DNA of 63,095 bases, the filler included, from Porpidia crustulata (Eukaryota), in NCBI GenBank assembly GCA_964255105.1. It is 16 parts of 16 records of this genome, joined end to end, with 100 filler letters (N's around TTAATTAATTAA, not from the genome) between each part and the next. Parts side by side here need not be neighbours in the genome. Positions count along the whole stretch, not along the records: positions 39,570 to 43,413 come from CAXUWE010002213.1; 15 more parts are not named here. One strand, 5' to 3'. The translations under genes were made by a program, and so were the position numbers. The notes beneath the pieces were generated by a model that was not told where the DNA came from, ran no database searches, and saw only the letters and a program-made list of their open reading frames with translations. Below are positions 3,985 to 51,065 of the stretch, piece by piece; position 1 is the first letter of the stretch; every line of letters starts with the position of its first letter.

Positions 3985-6774
3985 ATGAACATGTGTCAGC
4001 TATCAGTGAAGCAGAGACATCCAATCCGGCCAGCTTATGGGACACGGGGTGACCCAGTGACACTATTCGCCAATTACTTCGAACTACTCACGGCGCCAGA
4101 CCTTGTGCTTTACCGCTATAGCCTTGACATCAAATATATAAAAAAGGGCCGTGAAGATGACAAAGAACTCAAAGGTAAAAAGCTTGCTCAGGTCATCAAG
4201 CTTTTGTTAGGACTTGATGAGTATGTGGCTGTGAGGGATCACATGGTCACTGACTTCAAATCCACGTTGATATGTCGCAAGCAACTGGGTCAGAAAGAGG
4301 CAGAGCATTGCATTCAGTACAAAGCGGAGGGTGAAGATACGCCACTGGAGGATGCGCCGAAGTACAATATCAAGGTAATTGAGAGTGGTATTTTAACCGT
4401 TGCTCAGCTCACGGCTTTCGTTATGTCAACGTCTATCGATCTCGCGTACACGGATAAGGAGCCCACCATCCAAGCACTGAACATCATTCGCGGCCATTTC
4501 TCGAAAGCCTCGGCCACGCGGACCACTATTGGTGCAAACAAAAGCTTTTCGCTACAGAATCCCGAGACTCGGAACTTAGGTGCTGGTTTAGAGGCTGTTA
4601 GAGGTTTCTGGTCAAGCGTTCGCGTTGCCGCTACTCGCCTTTTGGTGAATGTAAATGTCACCCACGCCCCATTTTATCGGCCACTACCGCTGCCAATACT
4701 TCTAAAAGAATACGGCGTTTCCCAGAATCTATGGAAGGTCGAAAAGTTCCTCAAAATGCTGCGGGTCAGGGTAATCCACTTGCGTGTAAAGAAGAACAAA
4801 GCCGACGTTACAATTCCGCGCATCAAAACTATCTGGGGCTTGGCCAACGTTGACGATGGTCGCGATAATAATAAGAAAGATAAGATTCTGCCAAAAGTGG
4901 CAAAGAAGGGCGCGGGACCAAAAGATGTCCAGTTTCCCCTCATAGACACTAACACAGCGTCGTCAAGCCCACCTGGTGGTCGGTCCGGAAGCACCTCGCA
5001 AGCCAAGTTCATCAGCGTTTATGACCATTTCAGAAAGAATTACCCTAACCATCCGATCAGGGATCCAAGTTTACCAGTGGTCAACGTTGGAAGCCAAAAG
5101 AACCCTAGTTATCTCCCAATGGATGTTTGTGTGGTTGAGCCTGGGCAGAGCACAACCTCTAAGCTTAGTCCTGTGCAAACATCTGAAATGATTGCGTTTG
5201 CGGTACGGAAGCCATGGATGAATGCGGAATCTATCACGGCCAACGGCCTAGGTACGATTGGCTTGCTGCCACAGGTGAATCCTGTTTTAGCTAGCCTTGG
5301 TATCTCCATGAATGGAGACCTAATCACTGTACCGGGTCGCGTACTACCCGCCCCAAAAGTCAACTACAAAACCAGCTCAGCCAATGTCCGGGATGGCGGC
5401 TGGAATATGACGGAAGTTAAGCTGAACAGGTCAGCAACCTTAGGAAAATGGACCACATTGAGGATATTAAATACCAAGATTGAGACAGACCATCACAGTA
5501 GGATCGCATTAAACCTTCTATGCGACGGAGAACGATACAAATCAACGATGGACAAGTTCCACCATGCCCTCAAGAAGATTGGAATGGATGTCAAAGCTCT
5601 CGATCGTGTCCCTCCTCCAATTAAGGTCGACGACGCTAGACAGTTCGGCCTGATTGATGATACGTTCAAGAAAATTGCTGAGGGAAAGTTTGAACTTGTT
5701 TTCGTAATTCTACCTGCTGAGAAAACGCCCATTTACGACTACGTTAAAAAGATTGCGGATACAAAGTATGGCATTCATACGATATGTTGCGTGAGTACCA
5801 AGCTCGACAAACAATCGGATCAATATTTCAACAACGTTGCACTCAAGTTCAACCTCAAGATGGGTGGTATCAACCAGCTGGTCGACAGCACCCGCCTCGG
5901 CATCATCAATGAAGGGAAGACAATGGTCATTGGCATTGATGTCACTCATCCATCACCTGGATCAGCGGATAATGCCCCAAGTGTAGCTGCAATGGTAGCG
6001 TCAGTTGATAAGCTTCTCGGACAGTGGCCAGCAACCCTCCGCGTACAAGAGAAACGTAAGGAAGAGATGGTAGCAGACCTGAAGGGCATGCTCAAATCCC
6101 GTCTTTTACTCTGGAGGAATAAGAACAGAGTCCTTCCAGAGAATCTGCTCATCTATCGTGATGGTGTCTCCGAAGGCCAGTACGATCTTGTGCTTGACAA
6201 AGAATTACCGTTACTACGGGAAGCGTGTAAGGAACTCTATCTACCTGCAGACACTAAGAAAGGGTTGCCCCACTTCACTATCATCATATGCGGCAAACGT
6301 CATCACACTCGCTTCTATCCGTCCAGTGTAGACAAGGCCGATAAATCTTCCAACCCCAGAAATGGAACCGTCGTCGACCGGGGCGTCACAGAGCCTCAGG
6401 TCTGGGACTTTTTTCTCCAGGCCCACACTGTACTTCAAGGTACGGCGCGCTCTTGCCACTACATTGTTGTGCTGGACGAGATAATTCGGAAGCGCCCGAT
6501 ATCACATCACTTGGGCCATAAAAACGTTGCGGATGTTCTTGAAGACATGACATATTGCATGTGCCATCTGTTTGGCCGTGCTACGAAGACGGTCAGCCTA
6601 TGCCCGCCTGCCAAATATGCCGACTTGGTATGTGAGCGGGCGAGAAAATATTTGAGCAACTTGTACGATGTGAGCACCGTGGCAAGCTCTGTAGGAGAGG
6701 GCCAGCCAGCCAGCGCGACGAACGAGGATATTCAGATCCATGCAAATCTGAGAGATACTATGTTCTACCTCTAA
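3985..6774 (+). CDS. Argonaute, QDE2-like (N/PAZ/MID/PIWI); may lack its 5' end at the contig edge
   Basis: 929-aa uninterrupted ORF containing RPAYGTRG..LFANYF, YLPMDVC, LKFNLKMGGIN, GIDVTHP, IYRDGVSEGQ, KRHHTRF, DFFLQAH and PAKYADLVCER. Confidence 0.95.
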   Translation: MNMCQLSVKQRHPIRPAYGTRGDPVTLFANYFELLTAPDLVLYRYSLDIKYIKKGREDDKELKGKKLAQVIKLLLGLDEYVAVRDHMVTDFKSTLICRKQLGQKEAEHCIQYKAEGEDTPLEDAPKYNIKVIESGILTVAQLTAFVMSTSIDLAYTDKEPTIQALNIIRGHFSKASATRTTIGANKSFSLQNPETRNLGAGLEAVRGFWSSVRVAATRLLVNVNVTHAPFYRPLPLPILLKEYGVSQNLWKVEKFLKMLRVRVIHLRVKKNKADVTIPRIKTIWGLANVDDGRDNNKKDKILPKVAKKGAGPKDVQFPLIDTNTASSSPPGGRSGSTSQAKFISVYDHFRKNYPNHPIRDPSLPVVNVGSQKNPSYLPMDVCVVEPGQSTTSKLSPVQTSEMIAFAVRKPWMNAESITANGLGTIGLLPQVNPVLASLGISMNGDLITVPGRVLPAPKVNYKTSSANVRDGGWNMTEVKLNRSATLGKWTTLRILNTKIETDHHSRIALNLLCDGERYKSTMDKFHHALKKIGMDVKALDRVPPPIKVDDARQFGLIDDTFKKIAEGKFELVFVILPAEKTPIYDYVKKIADTKYGIHTICCVSTKLDKQSDQYFNNVALKFNLKMGGINQLVDSTRLGIINEGKTMVIGIDVTHPSPGSADNAPSVAAMVASVDKLLGQWPATLRVQEKRKEEMVADLKGMLKSRLLLWRNKNRVLPENLLIYRDGVSEGQYDLVLDKELPLLREACKELYLPADTKKGLPHFTIIICGKRHHTRFYPSSVDKADKSSNPRNGTVVDRGVTEPQVWDFFLQAHTVLQGTARSCHYIVVLDEIIRKRPISHHLGHKNVADVLEDMTYCMCHLFGRATKTVSLCPPAKYADLVCERARKYLSNLYDVSTVASSVGEGQPASATNEDIQIHANLRDTMFYL

Positions 6775-7959: not shown

Positions 7960-9744
7960 TCATATAATCCCCAACTCCACCGCATTCTTCGTCATCTCCC
8001 TCTCCCGCAGTATCCGCCCCCCATGCCCCAGCATCTCCTTCACCACCAACCTCGTATACGCGTTCAACGCCATCCTGACCGCCGCCGGATCCCGGCTCTG
8101 GAACAATTTCCCCGGCAACGTGCGCCCGCCGTCGCTCGCGCGTTCCTCCACGATGGCCGCGACCATGGCCGTCAGGAGGGCGCTGCAGCTGGCGCAGCAG
8201 ACGTCGCGGGTCTTGGGAATCATGGGGGCTTGGCCGTCGTCGTCGTTGTCGTCGGAGGCTGCGCTTCGGCGCGGACGGTTGTGGTTGTGCTTCTTGGTGG
8301 TGGGTGCGCGGAAGGGGCCGCGGAGTTTGGGGAAGGCGGTCTGCATGGCATGGCAGAGGCCTCGGTCGTGCCAGAAGGAAAGGACGCAGGATGCTGCTTT
8401 GAGGGCGTCGGAGGGGCAGGTCGACGGGGGCCATTGCTGCCGGTTGCGGCTGGAGATGTTGATGTCGTTGCAGAGGATGTTGGCGAAGTCGGCGACCGAG
8501 GTGTCTTCGAACAGAGCTTTGACGTCGTTGGCGTCCGTGGAGAGGAGGAGAATGAGGATCTCTAGGCATCCGAGCATGGAGGCGAATCGCGAAGCCATTG
8601 GTTGACCGTGAATATCTGGGGTGTCTCTGGAGGCTATCAGCTCGAGGCGACTGATGGTGTCATCTTGACCTCGACACACTGCACGAAGCAGCCTGTTCAT
8701 GTTCTTGAACTGTGTCGGCGTGTAGAGCATCTTCAGACTCTCCAGAGCGGCTTCTCTCCTGGAGGCTCCTGTCCTGGGAGATCTCGCAACCTGGCAAATT
8801 GAGACACCGAGCCTCAAACATCCACGTCGTTGTGCCTCGCTAGACCTTTCTTCTTCCTTGGCATTTGAGGGGGGGAGAATTGAAGAGACATTCGTACGTT
8901 GGTGTGCGTTCTTGGGGTTTTCCTTTGCGTTGGCGGTCTTGATGACCTTGCCGGTTTCGCAGGTCGCCGGCTCATTAGCGCTGTTCAGGGCGTTGGTTGC
9001 AAACTTGATAAAGTCCTTTTCAATCTCAGTAACAGGATCCTCAACGCAAGGAAGGTTCAGCCCATCAGCAAAGGAGATGAGATCGTCTTCTACAGGGGAT
9101 TCTTCGCTATCGGTCGTATCTCCTTGTGTATTGACTCGGGCAACTGCGTTGGCTAGAATGGCCACGAAAGATTCGTGGCGTTCTTGGACCATCTGTAGGG
9201 TGATGCCTTGTTCTTCGAGGGCTTGACCAAACTCCTTCCATCCTTGATCCTCGTCCATGACAATGGCCATGTTTTCGATCGAGACAACCGACCCACGGCG
9301 TTTCAGGGTAGTGATGATCCTATCTATCTTGCGCTCCGTCCGAGACTGTGCCGAGAGCAGCAAGAAGCCATTGAAGGTGTTTAGTCTATCGACCTGGGCG
9401 GCGATCCGGGTCCGGATAGGGGCAGTGTCTTTCCCGGCGAACTTGACTCGATTCCAGGATTTGCCACGTCCTTCCATCTGGTACTTGCGTAGCATACTAC
9501 GTATATCTTCCAAGGTTTCTTTGCATTTCGTCGAGATGTCTTTGAGCTGGGTCCACTCACGACTAGTAAGCGAGTCCTTTTGCCTCTCTACCTTGCCTTC
9601 GACTTGGGTCAAGACTTCGTGAAGGGAGATCACATCTTCCAGCAGGGTTTTGTGTTCTTCAGGGGCATCCTTCAACGATGAATAGACATGCCAGGCAAGT
9701 TGCGACACAGCTACAAAGTCAGTGACTCCAAAACCGAAACTCAT
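7960..9744 (-). CDS. Protein with a fungal STAND N-terminal (HeLo-like) domain and degenerate ankyrin-like repeats; no NTPase motif seen
   Basis: 594-aa ORF starting MSFGFGVTDFVAVSQLAWHVYSSLKDAPEE, a typical Helo_like_N start. Ankyrin-like segments LLRAVCRGQDDTISRL and DIHG..ASMLGCLEILILLLSTDA. Confidence 0.7.
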   Translation of the reverse strand: MSFGFGVTDFVAVSQLAWHVYSSLKDAPEEHKTLLEDVISLHEVLTQVEGKVERQKDSLTSREWTQLKDISTKCKETLEDIRSMLRKYQMEGRGKSWNRVKFAGKDTAPIRTRIAAQVDRLNTFNGFLLLSAQSRTERKIDRIITTLKRRGSVVSIENMAIVMDEDQGWKEFGQALEEQGITLQMVQERHESFVAILANAVARVNTQGDTTDSEESPVEDDLISFADGLNLPCVEDPVTEIEKDFIKFATNALNSANEPATCETGKVIKTANAKENPKNAHQRTNVSSILPPSNAKEEERSSEAQRRGCLRLGVSICQVARSPRTGASRREAALESLKMLYTPTQFKNMNRLLRAVCRGQDDTISRLELIASRDTPDIHGQPMASRFASMLGCLEILILLLSTDANDVKALFEDTSVADFANILCNDINISSRNRQQWPPSTCPSDALKAASCVLSFWHDRGLCHAMQTAFPKLRGPFRAPTTKKHNHNRPRRSAASDDNDDDGQAPMIPKTRDVCCASCSALLTAMVAAIVEERASDGGRTLPGKLFQSRDPAAVRMALNAYTRLVVKEMLGHGGRILREREMTKNAVELGII

Positions 9745-10639
9745 GTTGACTGAATTTTCGATCGTAGAACGGTATGTCGGTCAGGTCGAGGGGATTGTTG
9801 GTTTGTAAGCTGATTGACGAAAGGATTTTCAGAGTAAATGGCTTGCTGTCTGATGGATCCACCACATCAACGATATTGCTGGCTGCGAATTTGGCCAGAC
9901 TGATCAGAGTTTATATAGAAAAAAATGATATGCCTGGTCACAGATAACGGAGATTTTACATCAAGGTAGAAGCGATTGGATACACAGCAGCTCGCACGTC
10001 TCCCCCTTATTCTCCTAGATTGATGGCATCAAAAGTCGGCGGTTATTGATCCAAACAGAGAAAGACGGCTAAACCCCAAGAAAGAGCTGCATGCATACTG
10101 ACAAACGTCTTGGTATGAAGCATGTACGAGATGACAGCAGAAGCAGGTGATAAGATTCAAAGAATTAATTGGACTGCGTCGAGTTGCCTCGTAGGAAAAT
10201 CAACTACACGTGCCATGATCGCTTGTCGCGAAAGCGCAGTGAGCTGGATCACAGCAAAAGCAAAAGCAGGCAACCGAACGAGGAAACCCTATCATTGTCA
10301 GCTCTAGCAGCATTATCAAATTAATCTCGAGGCTACAAGGGGTATGCATTAAAACGTTCCGATTTTGTGAAGTCTTAACGTATGCGGATGGATATAGCCG
10401 CAGCCTTCCCCTACACGCGCAACGCACCCGATTGGAAAACATTTCAATTGACCGCAGCGCGTGACCGTTTCTGCCGATATTGGATTGTAGACACTTGGGA
10501 CTTTAGAAGAGAGATGATGTGGATGTGAAAATGGTGAAATAAGGTGTCAATTAGGGTACGCCACTAGAAGCTCACCAATACATTCGACGGTGGATCATTT
10601 GAAGCCACTGAAGCGATCGCGACCATCTGTGTTTTCAAC

Positions 10640-14429: not shown

Positions 14430-14806
14430 GTTGACGCCGTCCTTACGTGCCCCGACACGAGGCCACACGCAGAGGAAATAACACGCAATAAGAACAAGAC
14501 GCCTGAATCATGAGATGTGGGAATTCAAGGCCTGCTTTTCCAAGCAATGGATATAAATGACTTTTTCGGGACAGTTGCGTACTGCCTTTTTATACAGAAT
14601 TAGATAGACAAGTCGAACTGCAGTCAGGATTGTGAGAAAATAAACCACCTTAGATCTTACCGCAAATTCTAGCATAAATTCGACCATAGATGAGAGCCAA
14701 AGTTGTAATCCTCTCAATCTCCTAATTCCGAGTACAACGGCTGATTTTCATGACTTCCTCAGCCCTACAGCCCTATAGCCACCTCAGCCCTACTCTTCCG
14801 CTATAC

Positions 14807-14870
14807 CTAGGGTTAGGGTTATAGCGACCAGTTTTGGTTGGGGCGGACCGTTGAGGGGTAGGAACGAGTA
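14807..14870 (+). mobile_element. Telomere-core MITE, subtype A; right half only (left TIR absent)
   Basis: CTAGGGTTAGGGTT (14807-14820) and right TIR CCGTTGAGGGGTAGGAACGAG plus TA (14848-14870). Colinear without gaps with 42466-42529. Confidence 0.8.
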
Positions 14871-24499: not shown

Positions 24500-26079
24500 C
24501 TTGATGCCTCAGACTGTGGCAGTCCTTGTTGTTTCGAAAGGAAAGGCCTCAGAATCTGCTGGTGGTCGCTTTTACCATCCGATACCATGTTCGATATCGG
24601 CATATTGTGCTTATTATATTCAGCAAGTCCGAACCCTTGGCTAGGAGACCATCCTTATCGCAACCCATTCGCCCCCATTTTATACAATATCCAAGAGCTA
24701 TCCCATCCACTCAACGATAGGATGGCATTTGGCTTAGAGACACTATACCATCTTAAAATCCTCGCAATCCAAACCTTCTGCGAGCTCAGATATTGTTTGA
24801 CATCAGGCGTCCGGAAGGAAACGCGGGCCAGGCAATTTCTTTCTCCATATATCTCTCACTGGACCTCCGCGTTTAGAATCGAGACTAGTATAGATTAGCC
24901 AGGAACGTGGTCTGCGATTAGCATATATTTGTGTTAGCATGCCAGATAGTCGCCCCGAGCTGAAATCTAAGCATAAGGTACTCTTTCCGACATACAGGGC
25001 ACAGCCGGGAATTTTTGCCGCAACCTCCTGTTGACCCTTTTCTTGGAATGCTTCGAGCGCTGCTTTTTGATCATTTCGCATGCGCAGTGGACTTCTAAGT
25101 TGCGCCCAAATGCGTATAGCAAGACGTCCTGCCGTGACTTGGCGAGTGGGGGTGAACCCATTATGACGGTTGGTGTAGTCGATCGCGAACGCACCATAGA
25201 ACGTTTAATACATTGCCCTGAAGTCATGGGGGAAGTATGGTAGATAGGTGAGAAGTAAATGTTGAACACGCCGTAATGCTCGGCAGTAACGAGAAGCCTG
25301 TTGAACCACGATGAAAGCTTCCCGTTATAGTACGCAAAAGCCAAAAATCGACTGATGCTGGCCATAACAGCGTGTACGAAATTAGCCCCTGCTCGCGCCA
25401 CCAGTTCGACTACCGGCATTCAGGAACGCTGATTACATCTCTCCATGCGCAAGCAACGAACAGGCCTCATCACAATTGCATGACCCTCGTTGCACCTGGA
25501 CAGCGAAACATGGCGAAGTCGAGTCGGAATGCGACAGCTGACGTGGCTTGGAGCCTCTGTAGCGGTCACTGCACCGCTTCTGCCAAGCGTTGGCGGAGGC
25601 CTGAGCGGACCACGGGGCGCGTACGCGCAACATTTGGATGTTGTAAATATGGCATTATCAAGTTAGAAGCATGGGTACGTCAAGATACCTGTATGATCAT
25701 GTTGTGCAACTTGGATGTGAAACAGAAGCTGCAGATGTACCTATGCTGGTGTCGAAAAGGTAGGCGAGGAAATGGCGTTACTCCGAATAAGGCATGCGCC
25801 TTGCCCTATTGGGTAATATACGACAAACTCTCTTGACTTCTGAGACAAGCGCTCTTTGACCTTGAGAGTACAAGTTGTAGCAATAAGCTCAGTCTATGTA
25901 GGGGCAAAGACCATTGTGCCTCATTCAGTGCTTCGTTCAGAGCTCCTTTCAATGCTACATCCAGCGCTCCAACCAGCGCTTCTTTAGTATGACAATCCAC
26001 ATCAAACAAAGAAAAATCATTCAAATCTAAAAGTTGAAAATCAACAGACTGCAGTATGTAAAGGCGTCTAAGAATAACA

Positions 26080-26258
26080 CTCGTTCTCACCCCTCAATCA
26101 AATCTACTCAACGGAACACACCCCTCAAAGGAACAGCAGGTCTAGGGTTAGGTTGATTTCCGTCGTTTGAGCCTAGCTGTCCCGTTGAGGGGTGAAAACA
26201 AGAAGGGGTATAGCCCTAACCCTATGCTGAATGGTCCGTTGAAGGGTGAGAACGAGTA
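26080..26258. mobile_element. Composite or nested telomere-core MITE (subtype B on + apparently inside subtype A on -)
   Basis: Left TIR CTCGTTCTCACCCCTCAA at 26080-26097; CTAGGGTTAGGTT at 26142-26154; internal TIR at 26182-26202; reversed core AGCCCTAACCCTA from 26212; outer TIR CCGTTGAAGGGTGAGAACGAG at 26236-26256 plus TA. Confidence 0.8.
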
Positions 26259-35523: not shown

Positions 35524-36250
35524 NNNNNNNNNNNNNNNNNNNNNNNNNNNNNNNNNNNNNNNNNNNNTTAATTAATTAANNNNNNNNNNNNNNNNNNNNN
35601 NNNNNNNNNNNNNNNNNNNNNNNACCCTGCATAGGTGTGATGCCCGATAGTCGGCCCTACCGATGCGTCTCCAGTCCCACCGGAACATCGAATTCGAATG
35701 AGATCAAATTAACATGGAGGAAATACGGGCACGTATTCAAGAACGCCTTGACGATGCGTTCGTCTAATAAAGTTTGGTGGTAAGCCCATGAAATCAGATT
35801 TCTGATGATGTCTTCATGTAAGTAGCTGTTCAATGTTTTGGTGGGGCTGGAGATGCCTCGGTAGGGCTGACTCCACTGACTTTTGAAACCCCCTGGTGGC
35901 TTAACGGATAAATCAATTTGCACGTATGACGACTTGGTACGTTACAACGAGTCTCTGCTGCAGCAGCTATTAAGTTGGGCTCCAGAAATACAGCTCGCAT
36001 TATTAGTGCTGGACATCTACATGTCTGATGCTCCCAATGTCTTCATTGCCCAATCAAATGGAATTATATAAGCGGACAGTTCCGCCACGTCCCGCTTGCG
36101 AAGGCAGCAGTGAGACTTAGGTCCAGCTCATACAGATATTCTTCCTATATGGCTGGTACCAGTGCTGTAATTTTCGTTATTTCTTTATAAGATCTACTGA
36201 ATCGTGAGATATTCTGGTGTCCTAAGTTCTGTTCAATCTATAGATTCGCA

Positions 36251-42255: not shown

Positions 42256-42434
42256 GTGCAAATGGGTAAAGAAACGATCACGTCTTGTACTGGTATGAGA
42301 CATGATTAAGATCAATGGAGATTGAGCCAATGGATGATTCTAGACCTCTGGTATCTTGCAACAAATGGCCCTTCAAACATAAGGGTCATGGATAATTGTC
42401 CATTGAAGAAGGTAAATGGTTAGGCAAAGATCTA

Positions 42435-42527
42435 TTCGTTCTCATCCCTCAACGGGCCAGCCATCCTAGGGTTAGGGTTGTATCTACTAATTTTGATTAG
42501 GGTGGTCCGTTGAGGGGTGAAAACGAG
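42435..42527 (+). mobile_element. Telomere-core MITE, subtype A; full length (93 bp) with TA on both flanks
   Basis: TA | TTCGTTCTCATCCCTCAACGG ... CTAGGGTTAGGGTT (42466-42479) ... CCGTTGAGGGGTGAAAACGAG | TA. Confidence 0.88.
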
Positions 42528-43006
42528 TACTTGCATAGGGCTGATCGCCAATCAGCGTCTCGCGAGGCTCTCAATCATTCTCGACCACCACCACCATTTG
42601 TCGTATCCAGATCGAACCCGGCTGAACAACAGGCCAGGAGAATGGACATTCGTCAGCAGTACCTAAGGATGCTACATGCTTTCAATATGTCTGCCGTCCA
42701 GCTCGCTAAACACGAACCTATTCGGAAAGCCACCTTCAGCCCTCGCTGCAGCTTTGGAATCATATCTCCTGTCAAAGGCTGCTATCATCAGATGTTTCTC
42801 GCTTTTCTCGCTTCTCGTTCATCTTTCAGATGCACACCATTGTTCATCGAATTTTGCCTCTCGTATAAAGTATCCGCATGTCTCTGTTCGTTCTGTAACG
42901 TTGAATATACATCGCTTCAGCTGAGATTGGCCATTTGAAGCAGCTCTCCTCCCAAACTATCTCATTTCCAACTGGAAAGCGCTTTCATCCAAAATCTTCA
43001 AGACTC

Positions 43007-47714: not shown

Positions 47715-49722
47715 TCACCAATATAGGCGCTCCTTCTTCAGAGCTCCTAATTCGCCATCCTGTCCAATCATGACTTGACCAATTTTCTCGTCAGCCTTTA
47801 TGTCTCCGATCATGAACCTAGAATCCTTCAAAAGCCTAACTCTCTCATCCTCATCTAGATATGAGCCGCCTTCGAGAATGTTTTTCCCATCATTCAGCGT
47901 TAGCGCCGACAGAAAGTTCGTAGAATCGGGCGCCAACCGGACGAAAATTAGGATGGCGGAGGCGATGCTGGTGAACAACATCATCAGAGCCGATACGCAA
48001 AGAAGGGCAAACCAGGGGTCGCTGCCGTGGAGGAACTCCTGGGCGTTCATAGTCGTGACGCTGCTATTCCTGACGGCGCTGAAATTCCCGGTAGAAGTCG
48101 TATGGACCAAGCTCGGGTCGCTAGCGTTGAATCCGCCGGCTGCGTTTGCGAATTGATTATCAACGATCCAGTAGGTGTTTAAGATCTGGCCGAGCCGTCG
48201 TGCCAATGATTGAGAGTCTAGCTGTGTGAGGTCGAAGACGCTATTGGTATTGGAGAGAACATTGTAAGGATTCTGGGACGAGTCCCACAGGTAGGCTTCA
48301 AGGACCCCGTATATGGCGGTGCCCAGATGCTCGACTGGAAAGGCTGCCGTGAGATGAGGAAGGAAATAGGTGTGGAATTGAAACATATCCGACTTAGTGA
48401 CATAGTTCGCGTCCAATGTTGTGTTTCGAATTGCGGTGACATCGCACGATGAAGTTGTGCAGGTCACGTTCAGCTCAACAGGTCTTTGTGTGAGAACGGC
48501 GTCCAGGCGTACTGCGGAAAGAACGTCCATATTGGAGCTATAGTTAAATGTGACGTTCATGGAGTTCTTAATGGATACCATAGACGGCGTAACCTCGAAG
48601 GTGACCGGTATCGACGAAGCTATGTCTGGATTCCAGTTTTGAGGGATAGCAAATTGCCACTGTTGCCCTGCCGCAGTGAAACTTGTTAATTTCGATGAAC
48701 CGTTGTACTCAAATGCTGCCTCGAGTAGAGGTCCCTTAGAACCTTTCTCCCAGAGCGTGGCATTCTCAAACTGCCAGTACCACGACTGCATCATGAAGGT
48801 CATGTTGCCGGCGCCCTGCGGTCTTGAAAAAGGAATTCCTATGAGAGCAGAATACTGCAAATCAGATTGCGGGGGAACCTCTCTCCATCCATCAGCAGTG
48901 TTTGTGTCGTTAGAACCATCCAACAGTGGAATTTTGATGTTTCCCCACGGATCTTGTGGCGCTCGTTCATAGGTATTAATAGAGAGGAAGGAAGACAGGA
49001 ATATAGAGTGGTGAGCAGCTGCTTTGCAGTTTCCACAGTCAGAGTCGAACGTCGTCACGGGGTATGTGTACTGTACTGCATCAGCCAGTCCCGTTGAGAG
49101 TATTCCTCGCTCCTGAAAGATGAATCTCAACGATGCCTGACTTCCCAGTGGCGAGAATGCCCACAGCCCCATGAGTACAGCGGGCAGCCAGTGGGCGCAA
49201 CGAATGCGCAAAGGGGCGATGTATGTACTCCCAAGTGTGGAACCGCGACTCAGGTATGCGAAGCTGAGGCAGTCAACTCCTTTCTCGAGACGCCAAGATA
49301 GAACACCTTGAAGAGTTCTTCCGATGATAAAGGCGAAGATGAAAGGGAAGGCGGTGGCCACCTAGCGGATGTTATTAGCTTCTGAAACTGAGGCATGGGA
49401 AGCATGCGTGTACAATTCGAGCTGTATCCAGGAGCTTTTGCTCTCGAGACCCGAAAGTGTTACCCCTGGCACTGTACCCCAGGACGGCTAAGACAAAGAT
49501 GGCGATGGAAAGTAGCACCGATACAAGATCTATGAGGAGAATTTTGATTATCTGAGATCGAACCCTTAGAGTTCTCGGGCTAGCGTTTTTGGCGTCCTGC
49601 TTTGGCGGGGAGGAATCATCCTCACAGCTCCCCGCTTCGTCCTGGCTTAGATTCAAGGACGCATACGGGGCGTTGCCGTCGTTCGACTGCGAACCAGGAG
49701 CTACCGCAGGCAAATGAGACAT
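47715..49722 (-). CDS. Hypothetical membrane protein with a large N-glycosylation-site-rich luminal domain, 2 exons
   Basis: ORF 49375-49722 splices (GTACAC..CTAG) onto the 548-aa ORF. Hydrophobic segments at both ends; motifs LWAFSPLGSQASLR and QDPWGNIKIP. Confidence 0.75.
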
Positions 49723-50356
49723 AGCGGTCTGAACGAGTGACGTGACGTATTTAATGGACGGCGATTTCTGGAGAATACCTCGCGGGCATAACTGCTACGG
49801 CGCAGATATGAGCACTTTAGCTTTTTTCAATAGCAGATTCGACTGCTGGAATTATGGAAATGCGCGGTCTTACTGTAGAGCCATTTGACCTCAAAATTTG
49901 GAGGCCAAATTACAGCATACACATTCACAATCGACTAGAGATTTGAAAATGAAGTAATAATCGTGGGCTTTTTAAAACCGAAATGATATCGCTGTTTAAC
50001 ATATGGACGTGACAGTGCAGAGCCGCATTTGTGATGCTTGCACTGCCCGGCGACCTCACCTTCAGCTTCTCACCCGAATGGGCCGACCCAATCGCTTTCC
50101 GCAAATCCGACTTAAAATAGTGACGCCGAGGGATGCGTGCCGCCCGACGTCGAGAGCAGGATATTCCAAATCAAACATTTGCACTGCCGTATTGTGTGCA
50201 ATTATATACATCTTTTGTAGTACACGAGAGCCAGGTAAACAGGTGGATTGTCTAATGTAGCTAGGGAGCGTCGTCAACTAACCGTATCTGTTCTGCTAAC
50301 GGTTAGTGGGTGCCTAGACTAAGTCAACTCTAGCGGCTTCTATTATCAGTAGTGTA

Positions 50357-50455
50357 CTCCCACTCACCCCTCAACGGAACACACCCCGCAGCGGAACAGA
50401 AAGCCTAGGGTTAGGGTTACTTTCAATAGTTGTCCCGTTGAGGGGTGAATGCGAG
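50357..50455 (+). mobile_element. Telomere-core MITE, subtype B; full length (99 bp)
   Basis: TA | CTCCCACTCACCCCTCAACGG, a 17-bp subterminal repeat, CTAGGGTTAGGGTTA (50405-50419), then CCGTTGAGGGGTGAATGCGAG | TG. The two TIRs match at 19 of 21 positions. Confidence 0.85.
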
Positions 50456-51065
50456 TGATAAATTCATCATCAGAAGCCTCCCTGATATATCTACAGATAT
50501 TTTAGATAGGATAATTCATCGCTTCTTATATACCAAACAGAGATATAACGCGAGAATCTCTTTCCCAACGCGAAATGTACTATTTTAACCATCCCACAGT
50601 CCTAAAGCTCCGACTCGAAAAGACCAGCCTTGTAAACTTTCGACGCGAAGCTCGTCTATTACCTCCCGAGAAGCTTAGCATCGTTTCCGGCACAAGGCTG
50701 TGGCGCACCGTTGGTAGGCAAAGACACAAAAAAGCCCGGGTTGTTATACGAGGTTGTCAAGGCTATTGACTCCTAGATTGCTCGTTTCTCGCTACTGTTC
50801 ACCCACGTTATTTGGAGCCTCGCGAGCCATGCGAGCTAAAGTTCAGAGAATCAATAATGCGCCATCAAGCCATTGAACATCTAATATGGCCATGGCGGGA
50901 GGAGTAGGGTCGCATAACCTGTTTCTGACTCTCAACTCTCAAATTCTTCTTATGCATTTCCTTCCATCTCATCCTCTGCCTCCTCCTCTTCTTCCTCCTT
51001 CCTCTTCTTCCTCCTCCTTCTCCTCCTCCACTACCCACATTGTCCTTCCTCATCTCAACCCAACC

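Follow-up and report, generated by a model that had tools for sequence, protein, structure and literature searches.

Fungal MITEs have been assigned to the Tc1/mariner superfamily from their TIRs and target duplication alone, where no transposase is known (PMC3227409). For example, EFT-25m has 81 bp, a TA flank and a 24-bp TIR. EFT-25m and EFT-29m of Epichloe and Guest of Neurospora crassa are all very short (81–98 bp), with TIRs of 24–25 bp and TA flanks, and fungal Tc1/mariner-type MITEs, including mimp of Fusarium oxysporum, are non-coding and occur in tens of copies in gene-rich DNA (from the accessible part of PMC3227409). A TA target site is a common mark of IS630/Tc1/mariner elements (PMC7325037, in the part available). 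The element described here resembles this group in size, TIRs, TA flanks, lack of coding sequence, copy number and gene-rich surroundings. The parent element is known for mimp and EFT-25m, unlike for the present element. Compared by description and not by sequence, EFT-25m, EFT-29m, mimp and Guest also differ from it in that the accessible descriptions name no telomere repeats (PMC3227409).

Mobile elements with telomere-type repeats are known in other forms. The telomere-bearing elements (TBE) of Oxytricha are DNA transposons of the TA superfamily in which host telomere-type repeats are integral, as in the present element. In TBE the telomere-like sequence lies at the tips of TIRs of ~80 bp, whereas here the repeats form a central core and the TIR tips are free of them. 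TBE are autonomous elements of ciliates with three ORFs, in contrast to a non-coding element of 95–125 bp in a fungus (PMC7325037, in the part available). A subtelomeric non-LTR/Penelope-like family in Zymoseptoria tritici is likewise a fungal repeat carrying TTAGGG, in one to three units. According to the accessible text, its members are retroelements of 3.4–3.5 kb that carry the repeats at their 3′ end and are confined to subtelomeres (PMC4522978), unlike the present dispersed TIR element beside ordinary genes.

TTAGGG away from chromosome ends is also known from Tbf1-type promoter sites and short interstitial telomere sequences (PMC2834713, PMC5752202). Tbf1 recognises clusters of TTAGGG in promoters of S. 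cerevisiae, and in C. albicans it binds a TTAGGG-N6-CCCTAA palindrome (PMC2834713, in the part available). These sites can be bound by telomere-type Myb proteins, and the present core is a candidate site of the same kind. Unlike the core, they are not described as transposon-borne in the accessible parts of these two papers (PMC2834713, PMC5752202).

The original prediction recognised no described element of this sort, and the literature search agrees: it turned up no account of a MITE that has telomere repeats in its interior, nor does one occur in the available portions of PMC6947457, PMC4522978 and PMC5656749. Two text matches were discarded, as the 'mites' of PMC9498494 are arthropods and 'telobox' stands only in the reference list in what is available of PMC11745025. 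The element is most likely a new MITE of the TA-targeting kind, restricted to one lineage. The mechanism itself is not new, short TA-flanked MITEs being ordinary in fungi; what is unusual is an integral, strictly kept telomere-type motif.

Anatomy of the element in the window

The window, by which we mean the whole stretch of DNA analysed, has 63,095 bases and consists of 16 contigs of ~3.8–3.9 kb each, joined by N44-TTAATTAATTAA-N44 spacers. Its gene content is ordinary and fungal, with a QDE-2-type Argonaute, ELP1, EF1-gamma, mitochondrial ribosomal protein S9, an MFS transporter, seryl-tRNA synthetase and a 2EXR/DUF7730 protein. The same element, 95–125 bp in size, is found at four loci, with three copies in full, one truncated and one present as an inverted half. 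These copies, and the genes to which the text refers, are as follows.

42433..42529, + strand: full copy, subfamily A, 93 bp plus TA on each side; TA, left TIR 42435-42455, core CTAGGGTTAGGGTT 42466-42479, right TIR 42507-42527, TA
42497-42502: third TTAGGG of the 42435 copy, in its right spacer
50355..50457, + strand: full copy, subfamily B, 99 bp, flanked by TA (left) and TG (right); left TIR 50357-50377, core 50405-50418, right TIR 50435-50455
26078..26204, + strand: full copy, subfamily B, 123 bp (26080-26202), flanked by CA and AA; left TIR 26080-26100, degenerate core CTAGGGTTAGGTT 26142-26154, right TIR 26182-26202
26203..26258, − strand: inverted half-copy abutting the full copy 26080-26202, HMM E 4.5e-7 (match 26206-26256); TA 26257-26258, TIR 26236-26256, core ATAGGGTTAGGG 26214-26225, then 11 nt
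14807..14870, + strand: truncated copy, subfamily A, without the left TIR; core 14807-14820, spacer, right TIR 14848-14868, TA 14869-14870
first ATG ~14429, − strand: Stk19-like gene next to the 14807 copy
ATG ~15052, + strand: ORF without known identity on the other side of the 14807 copy
3985-6774, + strand: QDE-2-type Argonaute, intact, single-exon, 929 aa, with ArgoN, L1, PAZ, L2 and Piwi domains

The copies share a common plan. On the left side, a flanking dinucleotide is followed by the outer 10 nt of the TIR (CTCGTTCTCA), its inner 11 nt (CCCCTCAACGG) and a left spacer. Then comes the core CTAGGGTTAGGGTT, and to its right a spacer of 16–27 nt leads to the inner TIR CCGTTGAGGGG, after which the outer TIR and another flanking dinucleotide complete the element. 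The TIR arms measure 21 nt, extendable to 26–30 nt at 83–88% complementarity, and the tips of the element read CTCG.../...CGAG. The core lies 10–41 nt inside the left TIR and 16–27 nt inside the right TIR. Between their flanking dinucleotides the full copies span 93, 99 and 123 bp; they are non-coding and too short for a transposase. All three fold into long hairpins, with z of -7.1 for the 42435 copy (30-nt arms, 83% complementary), -4.4 for the 50357 copy and -2.2 for the 26080 copy. In the left arms of the 50357 and 26080 copies the inner motif recurs once or twice more, partly in degenerate form: in the former a second, degenerate one directly follows the left TIR, in the latter further ones lie by the left TIR. 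The extra motifs may represent repeated candidate transposase-binding sites. The TIR of the half-copy has 95% pairing with the outer TIR at the far side of its neighbour (26079-26097), and the truncated copy is 82% alike to 42465-42529.

The TIR consensus, allowing up to 3 mismatches, has 8 matches in the whole window, all within the four loci, where 0 are expected (0 of 100 shuffles gave any match). The telomere 12-mer TTAGGGTTAGGG with up to 1 mismatch occurs 4 times, once per locus, against an expected mean of 0.19. An HMM built from the four loci and searched on the window recovers 5 copies at those loci only, with the next match at E=1.1. Thus the repeat family at four loci on independent contigs that the original prediction had proposed is real (the loci lie on contigs 4, 7, 11 and 13), and direct reading confirms the TA that it gave on both sides of the 42435 copy. 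Each of its loci carries the element, with corrections to two of them: 14807 is a truncated copy without the left TIR, and 26080-26258 is compound. The ~2.3 TTAGGG units claimed for every copy hold for most cores but not for that of the 26080 copy, which has degenerated to CTAGGGTTAGGTT.

The surroundings of the copies are promoter-proximal or intergenic. A distance of ~130 bp separates the 42435 copy from the first ATG (42303) of the minus-strand 2EXR/DUF7730 gene, with the copy on the upstream side. The minus-strand Stk19-like gene and the plus-strand ORF diverge from an intergenic region of ~620 bp, in which the 14807 copy is found. The other two loci are intergenic, among ORFs without a family match, and the neighbouring genes show no obvious common class (Stk19-like, 2EXR/DUF7730, ORFs without family). 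As a side observation, three CAGCCCTA (the reverse of TAGGGCTG) are found at 14761-14792, directly left of the truncated copy and at the place expected for the left arm; with the core of this copy they make a CCCTA...TAGGG inverted arrangement in the divergent promoter region. AGCCCTA has 10 occurrences in the window, 3 of them in 14761-14792.

Copies in the organism's sequencing contigs

A single public run (X1), from one organism, matches the locus near-identically and is probably the window's own source, not independent support. The contigs of this run were aligned to 42336-42635 at a likeness of at least 80%. A stretch at least 80% alike is carried by 60 contig records, one of them the near-identical and probable source record; 56 of the 60 aligned records cover the stretch only in part and 46 are less than 90% alike. 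From 11.6 in either flank, the summed depth climbs to 400–510 over 42466-42525. On the right, likeness stops immediately after TA (42529) in 13 records. On the left it begins at 42436 in 6 records, and the letters before it have a consensus ending in TAC. The flank letters agree among the aligned records at 0.38–0.5. With common edges at TA and so low an agreement beyond them, the copies therefore have sharp boundaries that include TA, and their flanks are unrelated.

The tens of copies seen here do not establish the very high genome-wide number suggested in the original prediction, the single run yielding 60 records at least 80% alike. The two estimates of copy number disagree, with 5 copies in the ~62 kb window against 60 records in 110.9 Mb of contigs. 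The latter count is a floor: many diverged copies were probably missed in the alignment, because 5 copies in ~62 kb would be very unlikely with ~60 per genome. No contig of the single run X1 joins across the element as an empty allele would. One contig has an opposite-strand joint from 42466 to 42500, and this one joint may reflect another head-to-head copy like that at 26080-26258.

The third TTAGGG of the 42435 copy is not family-wide, since A>G changes occur at 42496 and 42499 in 10 and 14 of the aligned contigs. The idea of a G-quadruplex was dropped, four G-runs being present in the 42435 copy only and absent from the other copies. Repeat-induced mutation (RIP) was considered for the variants of the family: 9 of 11 variant places are transitions, but their dinucleotide contexts are mixed and make no case for RIP.

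Searches in collections that contain few fungi returned almost nothing. The 21-nt TIR pattern had 0 matches in metagenome contigs and 0 in prokaryote-genome contigs, the core-plus-TIR pattern 0 in prokaryote-genome contigs and 1 in metagenome contigs, and two looser patterns 0 in viral contigs. The single match (L001, positions 1-60 of a metagenome contig end) has CCCCTCAACGG ~20 nt from a terminal AACCCTAACCCTAACCCT array in GC-rich sequence; it was rejected as a CCCTAA array beside a chance 11-mer, without a TIR pair.

Class of the element

The element is probably a non-autonomous, TA-targeting DNA transposon, a MITE of the Tc1/mariner/pogo type, which is a known kind in fungi. It is read as a MITE because it is short and non-coding, has TIRs and sharp common boundaries and exists in many dispersed copies. 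Decaying transposon copies typically show such truncation and compounding, as well as length variants in which the inner motif has been duplicated. TA is found at 5 of the 8 element ends in the window (TA background 0.050, P=1.6e-5); counting against a MITE of this type, the other 3 of 8 ends are CA, TG and AA. This TA could also belong to the element itself, as its last two bases, and not be a duplication. For the Tc1/mariner MITE of the original prediction the anatomy and the TA at most ends speak in favour, its TA duplication being putative. The window has 105 ORFs (stop-to-stop, 110 aa or longer), none of which belongs to a transposase family, and the long transposase-bearing copy that the original prediction had proposed to look for did not turn up among these ORFs. 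Two long minus-strand ORFs have no Pfam family and are not transposases by Pfam: one of 548 aa (47718-49361), which reads like an N-glycosylated membrane protein and was rejected as a transposase, and one of 606 aa (7963-9780).

In this Pezizomycotina fungus the copies would have arisen by deletion from a cut-and-paste DNA transposon, as derivatives without coding sequence, with 21-nt TIRs bound by a transposase that would be encoded elsewhere in the genome. This transposase would most likely belong to the IS630/Tc1/mariner superfamily (Tc1, mariner or pogo/Fot1 type). The key part of the TIR would be the invariant inner 11-mer CCCCTCAACGG/CCGTTGAGGGG, of which two copies have two to three repeats in the left arm. 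Excision would be followed by reinsertion at a TA dinucleotide, the TA being duplicated on insertion.

The same termini can be read differently. It is quite improbable that the element is a DNA transposon of another or unclassified superfamily, in which TA would be the end of the TIR (TACTCG...CGAGTA) and a duplication would be absent or unrecognised. CAGT-type ends are typical of many Tc1 and pogo elements, and the CTCG... termini are unlike them, which speaks for such a reading. Some Epichloe MITE families with 2-bp flanks have likewise been left unclassified (PMC3227409, in the part available). Against it, direct reading of the three full copies shows no direct repeats of 3, 8 or 9 bp beyond the TA, and short TIRs between TA flanks are the usual hallmark of MITEs of the Tc1/mariner type in the accessible parts of PMC3227409 and PMC7325037.

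A host cis-regulatory or structural palindrome, fixed in position, conserved across species and non-mobile, is a very improbable reading of the same copies. The invariant inner 11-mer and the core, set against a variable outer TIR, would suit such a protein-binding module, as would the intergenic places close to gene starts. A fixed palindrome is poorly reconciled with truncated, half- and compound copies and variable spacer lengths, with tens of copies whose unrelated flanks start exactly at TA (agreement 0.38–0.5), or with neighbouring genes that are functionally unrelated. Transposon insertions typically show all of these features.

That the hairpin serves mainly as a source of small RNA, as a microRNA-like or siRNA precursor for the fungal RNAi machinery, is extremely unlikely. 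The strong folding of the 42435 copy (z -7.1) could be taken in its favour, and so could the intact QDE-2-type Argonaute gene in the window and a below-threshold match of 42430-42531 (+) to the plant miRNA precursor MIR477 (30.5 bits, E 8e-5). Hairpin folding is common to any TIR element, however, no RNA run is listed among the public runs with this DNA, and the MIR477 score is far under the gathering score of 65 for a plant-specific family, so that the match was rejected as a chance hairpin likeness. Another below-threshold Rfam match, to MIR1446, was rejected on the same ground of hairpin likeness to a plant family, and over the whole window no Rfam family reaches its gathering score. The best named relatives of the Argonaute (3985-6774) are from lichen-forming Lecanoromycetes, at 51–53% identity; unnamed proteins reach up to 67%.

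The telomere-type core

The core CTAGGGTTAGGGTT contains ~2.3 units of TTAGGG; it is not a telomere but a short, interstitial motif of telomere type that the element carries. Its orientation relative to the arms is identical in 5 of 5 copies, and therefore it appears to be inherited from the founder of the family rather than gained repeatedly. The founder would already have held the core, passing it on in fixed orientation; our best guess is that it was captured at a deletion junction when the founder arose. Exact TAGGGTTAGGG 11-mers occur four times in the window, and single TTAGGG hexamers are scattered over it (16, of which 5 in elements). Because 4 of 4 of these 11-mers lie inside elements, the family explains the source of this genome's interstitial telomere motifs even if the core is a mere passenger. 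Such motifs should consequently not be taken for relics of chromosome fusion or for assembly errors.

Conservation is unequal along the element. The inner TIR is identical at 11 of 11 positions in all 6 right-arm pairs; the outer TIR agrees at 6–9 of 10 in pairs and the right spacers at 11–18 of 26–27. Neutral uniform decay is at odds with the outermost 10 nt of the TIR being less conserved (6–9/10) than the inner 11 nt (11/11). The core is identical at 14 of 14 positions in 3 of 5 copies and at 11–12 of 14 in the other two. In the aligned run contigs, 42467-42479 and 42500-42529 have no variant in 10% or more of the records, whereas 8 positions in 42480-42499 do vary in at least 10% of them. 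The core thus behaves like the presumed transposase-binding site and unlike the spacer, as judged from 5 window copies and from alignments at least 80% alike to one copy, which favour conserved anchors.

Tandem YTAGGGTTR is the preferred site of the TRF type. It is possible, if rather unlikely, that the core is a working module of the MITE, at which a telomere-type Myb protein (Tay1, Teb1 or Tbf1-like) is predicted to bind two tandem YTAGGGTTR-type sites. The bound protein could act as an architectural host factor aiding transposition, or it could influence nearby promoters by regulation, as an insulator or through chromatin; conceivably the core could also seed telomere healing after a break. 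Binding of Myb proteins and seeding of new telomeres had both been suggested in the original prediction. The resemblance in conservation between the core and the presumed transposase-binding site, beyond that of right spacers and outer TIR, argues for a working core, although the few copies and the ≥80% alignments behind it select for conserved anchors. Two copies lie in promoter-proximal or divergent intergenic DNA, but the neighbouring genes are of no obvious common class. Tbf1 is known on clustered TTAGGG in yeast promoters (PMC2834713, in the part available). A large chromatin effect is unlikely from 2.3 repeats because of the repeat-number data from Neurospora, as given in the accessible text of PMC5752202. 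There, eight inserted repeats bring about some H3K27 methylation and 17 a domain of 225 kb, and native interstitial tracts of fewer than 4 repeats have no preferential association with the H3K27 mark (PMC5752202).

For the MITE itself, our best guess is that the core would have been kept since it helps the propagation of the element, which would fit a binding site for a telomere-type Myb protein. The stronger proposal, that the core is required and selected and that a host telomere-type Myb at the two tandem sites aids movement of the transposon, e.g., by bending or anchoring the DNA, fits the pattern of conservation and is rated as unlikely. If it were true, each insertion would plant a working telomere-protein site beside a gene, and the family would spread Tbf1/Tay1-type regulatory sites and possible telomere-healing seeds through the fungal genome. 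Should the conservation mean function, the family would be a natural system for the dispersal of telomere-protein sites, with a bearing on the origin of short interstitial motifs; a functional core would also bear on how regulatory motifs spread.

The window holds a second, MITE-like inverted repeat at 35649-35872, near the start of contig 10. Its 44-nt arms are 84% complementary and 136 nt apart, and its outer ends contain GGCCCTACC / GGTAGGGCT. It is the sole pair of its kind in the window, which has 2 matches to the arm where 0.05 are expected.
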